Positions 9,520 through 41,896 of a DNA stretch of 64,000 nucleotides are shown here, piece by piece (the first letter of the stretch is position 1; each line of letters begins with the position of its first letter). Made by a program: the position numbers and the translations under genes. The DNA comes from Heterodontus francisci (Eukaryota). Below the pieces are notes generated by a model. It did no database searches and had not been told where the DNA came from. It worked only from the letters and a program-made list of their open reading frames with translations. The stretch spans positions 19,677,846 through 19,741,845 of the forward strand of contig NC_090414.1 in assembly GCF_036365525.1 (NCBI RefSeq), written 5' to 3'.

Positions 9520-10090
9520 CTCCTCCTCTCCACCCCTCCCTCTCGCTCAGCAGTTTCCGGTTCCGGTGCCTCAGAGGATGGTGACGGGAGTGATGGAGGC
9601 GGCGGAGAATCCGTGGTCGGAGCCGAAGCTGAATCCGCCGGCATCGGCTCCATCGGGCGGTGAGTGAGCGCGGTCCTGTCACCGATCGAGAGAAAAGGAG
9701 CGGTCCGGTTGAAAAGCGCCGATATTATTTAACGGAGAGGGAGGTGGACGAGATTGGTCGCCGACGCCGCGACCGGATCAAACGGGCGCCCCCGCCTCCT
9801 TGGGGTTTCCGATGACGGGTGGGGATGGTTGAGTGGGTGGGTGGGGGAATGGACGCCGGCTTATTGTGAGGTGAGAGCAGGGGGGAAGAGACTGAGGGAC
9901 GTCGTCTACCATCACTATCCTTGAATTTACTCTCCCTGGTTCCGAGATGCGGGGAAACACCGCAAATAATGGCGCCGACGACCGGCCTTTGCGGAGCCGC
10001 TGTGCGCAGGCGCAGAGACCAGATTTTTCTTTGGGGGGGGGGGGGTGGAGGAGAGAAAAGACCCGGATGGGAACCCGGAAGTAACATCCA
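9520..10090. promoter_or_regulatory. CpG island / promoter of the PRPF39-like gene
   Basis: CpG-dense stretch with tandem TTCCGG (ETS) at 9555-9566, ATTGG at 9753, YY1-like AATAATGGCGCC at 9965, NRF1-like TGCGCAGGCGCA at 10003 and CCGGAAGT at 10075. Confidence 0.75.
9578..9659 (+). CDS. PRPF39-like exon 1 (putative start)
   Basis: AGGATGG Kozak context inside the CpG island; [27 protein letters not shown]; donor CG|GTGAGT in phase 1, matching the phase-1 acceptor at 18942. Confidence 0.7.
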
Positions 10091-40000: not shown

Positions 40001-41896
40001 CCTTCCTAGCTGCTTGCTGCTGGTCGCGGTTATGTATCTGTGCTTGTGTCCCGGCGTCAGTGCATGATATGTGCCATATGTTTCTACCCCCTCCCTCTCT
40101 TCTCCCCCCCCCCCCCCCCACACACCCACTGCAGTTTGCTACACGCCTATGATGAACATCAGAAGCTCCTCAAACAGAACTCCAGTAAGAAACGAGCAGC
40201 TGAGAACGGGTGAGTGCTAAACCCGTCAGTTTTTGCGTTTCCTTGCGCGTCCCTGGTTCGGCTGTGCTGTGCCCATTTCCAGCCTGGGGGGCGGGGGGGG
40301 GGTGGTAGTCGGTCTGGAGAGGGTGCTCTGTGCTCACCGCATAGTTTGTGTTGTGTGCAAGAGTGCAGTACTGGCGTCACCGCTCGTACCCATGCAGTGA
40401 CACCCATGGTGTGCTTTAGGCGACAGCCGGGCTGCAGCTGGCGAGTGTCTGATCTCCTCCCCTCACCTTCTAGCCGAGAACAGCACGCTCCCAATTTCCA
40501 TGGTAATTCCGTGTAATGTGATGTTACCGATGGAAAAAAAAACAAGAGAGACTCGCATTTCTATAGCACCTTTCACAACCTCAGGAAGTTCCCAAAGAGC
40601 TTTACAGCCAATGAAGTACTTTTGAAGTGCAGTCACTGTTGTGATTGTGGGAAACGCAGCAGCCGATTTGCGCACAGCAAGATCCCACAGTGATTAGATA
40701 ATTAATCAGATGATCCGGTTTTAATGGTATTAGTTGAGGAATGAATATTGTCCCAGGATGCTGGGGAGAACTCCCCTGATCATCATCCGATAGTGCCATG
40801 GGACCTTTTACATCCACCTGAGAGGGATGACAGGACCTTAGTTTAATATCTCATCCAATAGTGCAGTGTTCCCTCAGCACTGCTGAGGGAGCTTTGGCCT
40901 GGATTTTGTGCTCAGATCCCCTCTCCTACCTTCAAAGGGGAATCGTCTATAATTGGAGAGCGTTGGGGTGGTTGGGGGGGTGGGGGAGGTGAAGAGAACA
41001 AGGGGGCAGGTGGGCATAAGACAGCAAACTCTTCCTGCCTGCAGTCGTCACTGTCACCTTTAGTGACAGAGACCCCAGCCCCCACAAGAGAAACGTGGAG
41101 CTGTTTATTTTTATTGTGACGCTTGGATTTACAGCACTGAGGAACCAGAGGAGAAGAAGGCGCGGGTGGACGATGTCTCCACCATCAGCGTAGTGAGCAC
41201 GGCAGCAACCACCACCAATTCCACCGCCCTAATGAGCGGAGATGTGACCAGCAGCCAGGCAGCGTACAACTACAGTGCGTGGTATCAGGTACGCGTTGGT
41301 GCATTCACCCCAAATATGGCCCATTGCACCTCTCTTCTTAACATACAGGCTCATTTCCGCAAACGTGGACTGGGGTGCAAATTACAAAAGCGCCAAAACT
41401 CTCCTTGGGCATTACTCTCTCGCTGTGTCCTCAGCGGTCAGTGTAAACTCCTGGATAAGTGTGGGCGACGACTCTCCAATATTTTAGCATGGTTTCTGCT
41501 CCTAAACCTTTTTTCTCATCAGCTGAACACCCGACCCCTGACTTCACATTGTAGTATCGCCCTTGAGATCCCCCATCTCCTTCTGCTCTGCAACTCTATT
41601 TGGTTGCATCTCTGAAAGGCACCAGAACACAGTTCCATTCAGCCAGCCCTGGTGTAGACCAGGTGCTCAGAGACCTCCCCGTGTCAGCCGGGTTTTTGTG
41701 CTCATGTCTGTGGAGTGGGGATCAAGCCCACGATCGTCTGACTCAACATCTTCAGATGGGGAAGAATGGGTGGGATTCCCAGCCAGACACAGCTTCTTAC
41801 TGATTTTCCATGTCTCTCTCTCTCTCTCTGCAGCCTTATGGATCATACGGATATCAGAACCCGTGGAACTACAGTCAGTATTACCCACACAGCTGA
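9578..41896 (+). CDS. PRPF39: Pre-mRNA-processing factor 39-like (U1 snRNP HAT-repeat protein), 14 coding exons, about 1151 aa
   Basis: Exons 9578-9659, 18942-20584, 22601-22726, 23962-24080, 27299-27466, 29462-29633, 31860-31967, 32415-32579, 32986-33112, 37289-37557, 38715-38899, 40135-40209, 41135-41288 and 41834-41896 are all GT-AG and phase-consistent (3456 nt). Hallmark motifs: [63 protein letters not shown]. Probably a paralogue rather than the 1:1 orthologue. Exon 1 and the start codon (9578 or 9593) are the least certain parts. Confidence 0.92.
10280..10625 (-). mobile_element. CR1 LINE 3' fragment
   Basis: Reverse translation [10 protein letters not shown]...[22 protein letters not shown], the CR1 ORF2 C-terminus. 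Confidence 0.85.
11885..12440 (+). mobile_element. CR1 LINE 3' fragment
   Basis: [14 protein letters not shown]...LEAVQRRFT motif followed by a CR1 3'UTR. Confidence 0.85.
13348..15330. repeat. 40-bp tandem minisatellite, about 49 copies
   Basis: Unit CAGGGTCTGAGGATAAAGCTCTGAGTGATATATTAGGACC (variant TGTGG for CAGGG) repeated head to tail in PRPF39-like intron 1. Confidence 0.97.
17450..17855 (+). mobile_element. tRNA-headed DeuSINE-like element (SacSINE1-like)
   Basis: A-box-like TGGCTCAGTTGG head, central GGGGAGTTATCCCCGGTGTCCTGGCCAAT, and L2-type tail AAGCGCTTTGGG..ATAGAAATGCAAG. Many further copies occur in the window. Confidence 0.7.
18942..20584 (+). CDS. PRPF39-like exon 2 (1643 nt, acidic repeat extension plus start of HAT domain)
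   Basis: Acceptor TCTTTTGTTCGCAG; open frame throughout; ends YVEQE|GTGAGG. Confidence 0.9.
19072..20026 (+). repeat. Coding 48-bp (16-aa) minisatellite in PRPF39-like exon 2
   Basis: About 9 diverged [20 protein letters not shown] units, then 11 [20 protein letters not shown] units at an exact 48-bp period from 19499. Confidence 0.95.
22601..22726 (+). CDS. PRPF39-like exon 3
   Basis: [42 protein letters not shown]. Confidence 0.95.
23545..23865. repeat. 69-bp tandem repeat, about 4.5 copies
   Basis: Unit GGGGTTAGATACAGAGTAAAGCTCCCTCTACACTGTCCCCATCAAACACTCCCAGGACAGGTACAGCAC. Confidence 0.93.
23962..24080 (+). CDS. PRPF39-like exon 4
   Basis: [25 protein letters not shown]... Confidence 0.95.
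24465..25800 (-). mobile_element. CR1 LINE, 5'-truncated, degenerate RT region
   Basis: [64 protein letters not shown]; (TTTCTATG)n tail at 24465-24480. Confidence 0.93.
26030..26280 (+). mobile_element. DeuSINE-like copy (internally deleted)
   Basis: GAATCAGAAGGTTGTGGGTTCGAG..CAGTACTGAGGGAATGCTGC..GCGGGATCTTGC, shared with the other copies. Confidence 0.65.
26297..26628. mobile_element. hAT-superfamily non-autonomous DNA transposon (MITE), 332 bp
   Basis: TIRs TAGAGGCCTGC / GCAGGCCTCCA (10 of 11 match); perfect 8-bp TSD CGTCAGGG at 26289-26296 and 26629-26636; subterminal CCCGA/TCGGG repeats. Confidence 0.9.
26710..27130 (-). mobile_element. DeuSINE-like copy
   Basis: Reverse complement of the SINE consensus seen at 17450 and 55985. 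Confidence 0.7.
27299..27466 (+). CDS. PRPF39-like exon 5
   Basis: [30 protein letters not shown]...YSHHFE. Confidence 0.95.
28905..29325 (-). mobile_element. L2-clade LINE 3' fragment
   Basis: Reverse translation [35 protein letters not shown]. Other copies at about 18250-18740 (+), 50130-50610 (-) and 54700-55450 (-). Confidence 0.8.
29462..29633 (+). CDS. PRPF39-like exon 6
   Basis: [23 protein letters not shown]...[14 protein letters not shown]; donor AAG|GTGACC. Confidence 0.93.
29960..30620 (-). mobile_element. CR1 LINE 3' fragment
   Basis: [45 protein letters not shown]. Confidence 0.88.
31118..31503. repeat. 69-bp tandem repeat, about 5.5 copies (same family as 23545)
   Basis: Same GTTAGATACAGAGTAAAGCTCCCTCTACAC unit; a partial array also lies at 29870-29965. 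Confidence 0.93.
31860..31967 (+). CDS. PRPF39-like exon 7
   Basis: [36 protein letters not shown]. Confidence 0.93.
32415..32579 (+). CDS. PRPF39-like exon 8
   Basis: [27 protein letters not shown]...[11 protein letters not shown]. Confidence 0.96.
32986..33112 (+). CDS. PRPF39-like exon 9
   Basis: [42 protein letters not shown]. Confidence 0.96.
37289..37557 (+). CDS. PRPF39-like exon 10
   Basis: [31 protein letters not shown]...[13 protein letters not shown]. Confidence 0.96.
38715..38899 (+). CDS. PRPF39-like exon 11
   Basis: [17 protein letters not shown]...[13 protein letters not shown]. Confidence 0.95.
40135..40209 (+). CDS. PRPF39-like exon 12
   Basis: [25 protein letters not shown]. 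Confidence 0.93.
40550..40915 (-). mobile_element. DeuSINE-like copy
   Basis: GCATTTCTATAGCACCTTTCACAACCTCAGG..CCAATGAAGTACTTTTGAAGTG is the reversed SINE tail. Confidence 0.7.
41135..41288 (+). CDS. PRPF39-like exon 13
   Basis: [13 protein letters not shown]...[12 protein letters not shown]. Confidence 0.93.
41834..41896 (+). CDS. PRPF39-like exon 14 (terminal coding part)
   Basis: (TC)n polypyrimidine tract and [23 protein letters not shown]. Confidence 0.92.
   Translation, partial: PYGSYGYQNPWNYSQYYPHS

Follow-up and report, generated by a model that had tools for sequence, protein, structure and literature searches.

The window analysed here, a whole stretch of 64,000 nucleotides (nt) of the Heterodontus francisci genome (contig NC_090414.1, positions 19,677,846 to 19,741,845), carries a gene of the PRPF39 family that we call PRPF39B (B), and a second copy, A, is found on another chromosome of the same assembly. 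B is an intact and spliced paralogue of PRPF39. In our judgement it probably predates the split between sharks and bony vertebrates, with a likely origin in an early whole-genome duplication and a likely loss in mammals, and where both copies are expressed their products would probably form A/A, A/B and B/B dimers.

Six-frame translation combined with splice-site reading gave a model of 14 coding exons on the + strand, from the ATG at 9578 to the stop at 41896 (Table 1), with GT-AG ends at all 13 introns. The joined exons amount to 3456 nt and encode 1151 amino acids (aa) with a single stop at the end, and the product matches letter for letter the database protein P0001, whose source label reads 'pre-mRNA-processing factor 39-like [Heterodontus francisci]'. 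Both HAT domains assign it to the PRPF39/Prp39 family, HAT_PRP39_N (PF23240) scoring 269 bits for a cut-off of 27.7 and HAT_PRP39_C (PF23241) 245 bits for a cut-off of 33. The closest solved structure is that of mouse PRPF39 (6G70, E 4e-259), with which residues 532 to 1149 of B are aligned. The first-pass annotation of this DNA had placed an intact PRPF39-family gene between SYVN1 and TMEM179B/EEF1G, and the present model bears this out.

Splicing was followed with contigs from four runs (X1-X4), whose placement on B covered positions 18800-38000. All eight introns wholly within this range (introns 2-9, 8 of 13 overall) were bridged GT..AG in each of the four runs, and the contig joints coincide with the predicted introns. 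At exon 2, some contigs start at 18941 with extra letters ahead and another spans 19957-20582 and is spliced to exon 3, no single contig among those listed spanning the repeat array of this exon. Copy A is also spliced in each of the four runs.

Profile searches of the assembly (G000) with the two PRP39 families returned two loci, the window on chromosome C44 and 39.40-39.45 Mb of chromosome C9, which together hold all eight N-domain matches and four of the six C-domain matches. The remaining two PF23241 matches, on C23 and C13, are weak (37 and 32 bits) and come without an accompanying N-domain match. The C9 copy (A) is intact across 13 modelled exons, its first exon not having been located; 391 of 639 aa are identical between A and B (61%), and the nine internal exons 3-5 and 7-12 are equal in length. 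A GC donor follows exon 12 of A (G000:C9:39438820), with GT at the same place in B. Within 0.27 Mb, the order at the A locus is PRPF39, FAU, a BTHB-domain gene of the FKBP3 type and a FANCM domain. The window copy is without such a neighbourhood, the BTHB and FANCM domains flanking the C9 copy instead, and a second PRPF39 stands beside FKBP3/FANCM, where the first-pass annotation had expected the orthologue; the human gene likewise has an FKBP3/FANCM neighbourhood.

The relationship between the two copies was examined with tree rows from three homologue searches and one library search, subsets being picked for taxon spread, and four trees were built from 57, 40, 26 and 31 trimmed proteins, those of 26 and 31 proteins by a careful method. 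Clade A (support 100/99) unites the C9 gene with elephant shark, ray-finned fishes, coelacanth, axolotl, gecko, grouse and lemur. Clade B (98/99 in the 26-protein tree and 94/98 in the 31-protein tree) contains the window gene, other sharks, rays and skate, coelacanth, sturgeon, gar, bowfin, tetra, newt, lizard, turtle and kiwi, as well as lungfish B in the 26-protein tree. Invertebrate rows fall outside the A and B vertebrate clades (100/100), and forcing all the cartilaginous-fish copies together, as for a shark-only duplication, is rejected by the approximately unbiased (AU) test (p-AU 1.5e-49, 26-protein tree). These data place the A/B duplication after the invertebrates and before the shark/bony-vertebrate split. 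Judged from the trees, and in agreement with the first-pass annotation, the window copy is not the one-to-one orthologue of mammalian PRPF39; it is the C9 copy that groups with lemur (100/99).

B is present in coelacanth, lungfish, sturgeon, gar, bowfin, tetra, amphibians, reptiles and birds, and the 'PRPF39-like' proteins of frogs, which are very diverged (46-51% to each other's best panel match), also have their best score to B. B is a jawed-vertebrate-wide gene, with orthologues named 'PRPF39-like' in databases, and its earlier description as a shark feature has to be corrected, clade B spanning sharks to birds. An absence of B from ray-finned fishes was considered as well and was abandoned once the tetra, gar, bowfin and sturgeon proteins turned up. 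Database names are unreliable in this family, some '-like' fish proteins being of type A and some B proteins, coelacanth P0410 and gar P0430 for instance, being labelled plain PRPF39. All 42 mammal-named proteins, retrieved mostly with an A-exon query, score best to A. With turtle B as the query, 66 of the 120 rows listed outrank the first mammal, 65 of them named non-mammals and one an unnamed protein grouping with kiwi, and no mammalian B was retrieved among the rows listed in the homologue searches. As far as these sequences indicate, B was likely lost in mammals, in agreement with the absence put forward earlier.

Mouse PRPF39 dimerises via complementary charged patches; the R464D and E576K/D577K mutants are monomers, R458D has a partial effect and Y536W leaves the dimer intact (PMC6582350). 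The B equivalents of R458, R464, E576 and D577 are R929, R935, E1047 and D1048, present without exception in the 12 B rows, so that B retains the charged dimer patches and is identical at four of the five mutagenised residues. At the site of mouse Y536, 10 of 12 B rows carry F, and so does lamprey. The correspondence takes the numbering of chain 6G70 to be shifted by five residues, with which all five residue types fit. Two residues ahead of the R458 site, B has L927 (exon 10); all five elasmobranch B rows have L or F here, against R in the remaining 18 vertebrate rows of the alignment. Fifteen columns distinguish A from B across vertebrates, including the interface position Y536 (A) versus F (B), and many of these differences are changes in A, since lamprey carries the B residue in 8 of the 15. 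Because the charged dimer residues are kept, B probably dimerises as A does, and a symmetric pairing of A with B is plausible.

Human PRPF39 is a binding partner of U1C that favours the use of weak 5' splice sites (PMC9808567), and it works together with TRNAU1AP under a poison-exon feedback (PMC13408128, PMC11389820). By analogy, the same U1C/weak-5'-splice-site role may be proposed for B. In the mechanism that we favour, B would fold into the same HAT-repeat arch as PRPF39 and would dimerise through the same symmetric charge-complementary surface. [quoted passage not shown] The difference between A and B would likely reside in dose, tissue and the disordered N-terminus, rather than in a yeast-style division of labour.

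About 545 residues precede the HAT domain in B; 23% of them are acidic and 9 are basic, and this N-terminus is partly made of 48-nt tandem repeats. Among the 14 cartilaginous-fish proteins listed, 485-827 residues precede the HAT domain in nine shark B proteins and 60-392 in five ray and skate proteins; the corresponding length is about 75-130 in most bony-vertebrate B proteins and mostly 78-190 in A, one eel protein having 437. Very long extensions are also seen in salamander B proteins (1643 aa in newt, and 1281 aa), P0225, P0246 and P0229 being salamander or frog B rows. Since the 73 N-terminal residues of mouse PRPF39 are invisible in the crystal (PMC6582350), the shark B arm is likely disordered too.

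A second difference concerns a cassette exon of 89 nt between exons 10 and 11 of A (L018:6952-7040, G000:C9:39436952-39437040), which is included in all four runs and has a stop at its third codon. The electric-ray isoform P0122 terminates with the same two residues, and the cassette is likely a conserved poison exon; that of human PRPF39 is reported to lie between exons 8 and 9 (PMC13408128, PMC11389820). No stop-bearing cassette was seen in B among the contig joints listed within 18800-38000, a range that covers intron 10 only partly, and no blastn similarity was detected between intron 10 of B (37558-38714) and that of A. Intron by intron, blastn matches between A and B were found in 2 of 12 introns. 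A bolder proposal, which we hold to be doubtful, is that A/B heterodimers operate in most non-mammalian jawed vertebrates, B adding its tail (in sharks an acidic repeat arm of 500-800 aa) and escaping the poison-exon feedback of A, and that they would have provided a tunable second layer of weak-5'-splice-site selection which was lost in mammals. If this were true, the 'metazoan homodimer only' rule would describe mammals, not vertebrates.

Another reading, which we find unlikely, is that B is a specialised protein, germline- or stage-restricted for example, acting mainly as its own homodimer with changed partners and making use of its variable acidic N-terminus. Such a specialisation would agree with the higher evolutionary rate of B, which is extreme in frogs and tetra, with the lineage-specific giant extensions of the shark and newt proteins and with the apparent loss in mammals, but the dimer residues are conserved and spliced B contigs occur in four of four runs, which bear no tissue labels.

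The first-pass annotation had also suggested that A and B could re-create a yeast-like asymmetry. In its strong form, A and B would make up a preferred or obligate, functionally asymmetric heterodimer like yeast Prp39/Prp42, in a distinct U1 snRNP variant of non-mammalian vertebrates. The splicing of A and B in the same four runs, the fifteen columns that separate them, with Y536 versus F at the interface, and the replacement by L or F of the arginine two before R458 in elasmobranch B would be in line with it. We nevertheless consider it very unlikely, as the charge-complementary pairs of the symmetric homodimer are unchanged in both A and B, and no Prp42-like remodelling of the interface into a hydrophobic, partner-specific one is seen in B. 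In yeast, Prp39 and Prp42 meet at a hydrophobic interface, which is associated with an extended U1 small nuclear RNA (snRNA) (PMC6582350). Moreover, the lamprey residues assign many of the diagnostic changes to A, which works alone in mammals, and A and B are 61% identical, as compared with 22-23% for mouse PRPF39 and the yeast proteins. The yeast-like reading is left without support.

As to the origin of the pair, PACS, Pellino and Pecanex, three of the three families tested, have copies on both C9 and C44, and because these families are shared A and B are likely ohnologues from an early vertebrate genome duplication, as had been predicted. In the Pellino-family gene on C44 (G000:C44:23647646-23657905), two sets of hits fall on identical profile positions, which may point to exon duplication. 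A retrocopy origin of B is excluded, since all introns are common to A and B. C9 measures 131 Mb and C44 27.5 Mb, and the G+C content at third codon positions (GC3) is 38% in A versus 72% in B. In a pair from the second round of duplication (2R), one member is typically a large chromosome and the other a microchromosome, and gene loss is biased (PMC8302630); the contrast in size and GC3 would fit such a pair, with B on the loss-prone side; on these grounds we lean to 2R over the first round (1R). The tree does not decide between the two, lamprey and hagfish forming a trichotomy with A and B. That B arose instead by an old single-gene or segmental duplication is highly improbable: no immediate neighbour pair is demonstrated between the A and B loci and the tree does not date the split relative to cyclostomes, but the three other families on both chromosomes, the shared introns and the fit of chromosome sizes and GC3 to a 2R pair all argue against it.

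Several points weigh against the interpretation of B as an ohnologue that kept the PRPF39 function and was lost in mammals. Lamprey and hagfish group together in a trichotomy with A and B, and a clade of A plus B is neither recovered nor rejected (p-AU 0.175, 31-protein tree). PACS, Pellino and Pecanex were selected as human 14q/11q13 pairs, a non-random choice, and each has one further copy on C3 or C13. For none of the genes close to B was a paralogue demonstrated in the vicinity of A, the search of G000 with the TMEM179B-like exon matching only itself and finding no TMEM179 paralogue. The mammal proteins came mostly from the A-exon query, and there is no monotreme or marsupial name among the rows listed. 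B is the faster-evolving copy (65% between shark and lizard B versus 75% between shark and gecko A, with long frog and tetra branches), which could reflect a changed function. Finally, the four runs represent one sample of one study, their RNA nature was guessed, none being recorded as RNA, and they are uninformative on same-cell expression or on the expression levels of A and B.

SYVN1 lies upstream of B on the same strand, where 11 stretches, from about 25.8 kb before the window to window position 649, are matched by the SYVN1 part of the Rhea protein P0062. This gene model fuses SYVN1 with B, which links the two in a bird too, and several fish gene models fuse A with FAU; both neighbourhoods, SYVN1-B and A-FAU, are old on the evidence of these fusions. 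In the shark, FAU is located 3' of A at G000:C9:39478002-39487297, as it is after A in several fish gene models, and no FAU match was found on C44. A FAU-like match riddled with stops is located on C41. The FAU-fused models of ray-finned fishes had been considered as A-type sequence in a B locus, which was rejected, since FAU follows the C9 copy and those fish genes are ordinary A. Human FAU lies near SYVN1, and its place by A here possibly results from reciprocal loss and retention from a duplicated PRPF39-FAU block. Downstream of B, the names TMEM179B for the minus-strand four-transmembrane (four-TM) gene, the exons of which gave no Pfam match, and EEF1G for the GST_N exon are putative. On both sides of the EEF1G-like start lie long arrays of simple tandem repeats (window 59241-61767 and 62400-63900), with long multi-phase open frames of non-coding appearance.

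Table 1. Features of the window (positions in the 64,000-nt stretch).
Feature	Position	Strand	Evidence or remark
SYVN1 late exon	500..649	+	86% identity to SYVN1 part of P0062
B exon 1, start ATG	9578..9659	+	matches N-terminus of P0001 and other shark B proteins; predicted junction to exon 2
B exon 2, 1643 nt, acidic low-complexity N-terminal extension and beginning of N-terminal HAT domain	18942..20584	+	
In-frame 48-nt (16-aa) tandem repeat arrays within B exon 2	19083..20043	+	up to 14.2 copies at 88%; 11.5 copies at 95%
B exon 3, 126 nt (equal length in C9 copy)	22601..22726	+	gene model, contigs
B exon 4, 119 nt	23962..24080	+	gene model, contigs
B exon 5, 168 nt	27299..27466	+	profile match, gene model, contigs
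B exon 6, 172 nt (C9 copy 160), linker	29462..29633	+	gene model, contigs
B exon 7, 108 nt, linker helix	31860..31967	+	gene model, contigs
B exon 8, 165 nt, beginning of C-terminal HAT domain	32415..32579	+	profile match, gene model, contigs
B exon 9, 127 nt	32986..33112	+	profile match, gene model, contigs
B exon 10, 269 nt, R929 and R935 = mouse R458 and R464 (positive dimer patch)	37289..37557	+	gene model, structure alignment, contigs
B exon 11, 185 nt, F1007 = mouse Y536, E1047/D1048 = mouse E576/D577 (negative dimer patch)	38715..38899	+	gene model, structure alignment
B exon 12, 75 nt	40135..40209	+	gene model
B exon 13, 154 nt (C9 copy 118)	41135..41288	+	gene model
B exon 14, coding part and stop	41834..41896	+	nearest downstream AATAAA at 43506
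Five-exon, four-TM gene, 213-222 aa, TMEM179B-like	48107..58455	-	downstream of B
EEF1G-like GST_N exon	62197..62382	+	GST_N 23 bits

Introns and intergenic DNA of the window (24600-26000, 30200-30700 and 52100-54500) contain fragments with reverse-transcriptase-like translations, which we take to be typical of copies of long interspersed nuclear elements. Rfam scans at the gathering threshold gave no match in the window and none in 80 kb of the C9 locus, so that an intronic small nucleolar RNA was unusable as a marker.

B is already annotated in databases as 'PRPF39-like' and is apparently undescribed in the papers searched, our literature searches having returned no description of a second vertebrate PRPF39. 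In the ohnologue database paper (PMC13450315), PRPF39 is unnamed in the main text and one supplement; the full tables may list the pair. In the published model, metazoans swapped the yeast heterodimer for a single PRPF39 homodimer (PMC6582350). A second full-length PRPF39 that most jawed vertebrates have retained, dimer surface intact, for more than 400 million years makes this homodimer model directly testable. Knockouts in fish, amphibians and birds may be buffered by this unnamed paralogue, and caution is required with database names that mix A and B copies. Ohnologues retained elsewhere and lost in mammals are a common class, and the surprise is accordingly moderate.

Among the known systems, the database 'PRPF39-like' genes of sharks, fishes, amphibians, reptiles and birds are the orthologues of B, under names that are automatic only. 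Mammalian PRPF39 (6G70; PMC6582350, PMC9808567, PMC13408128) has the same HAT_PRP39_N and HAT_PRP39_C domains and shares with B a C-terminal Tyr/Trp-rich tail, the lemur protein being 64.5% identical to B over the core. B differs from it by its position in a sister clade, by SYVN1 as a neighbour rather than FAU/FKBP3/FANCM, by an acidic repeat N-terminus of about 545 aa versus about 80 aa, by F at Y536, and in that no feedback exon is seen among the joints listed in 18800-38000. Yeast Prp39/Prp42 (PDB 5ZWN chains U and T), to which B has weak sequence matches (E 6e-25 and 4e-14), resembles A/B in that a single genome encodes two HAT-protein paralogues belonging to one family. The yeast pair comes from an independent fungal duplication and has diverged far more from mouse PRPF39 (22-23% identity) than A and B from each other (61%); its interface, accompanied by a long U1 snRNA, is hydrophobic and asymmetric, whereas in both A and B the interface has stayed symmetric and charged.

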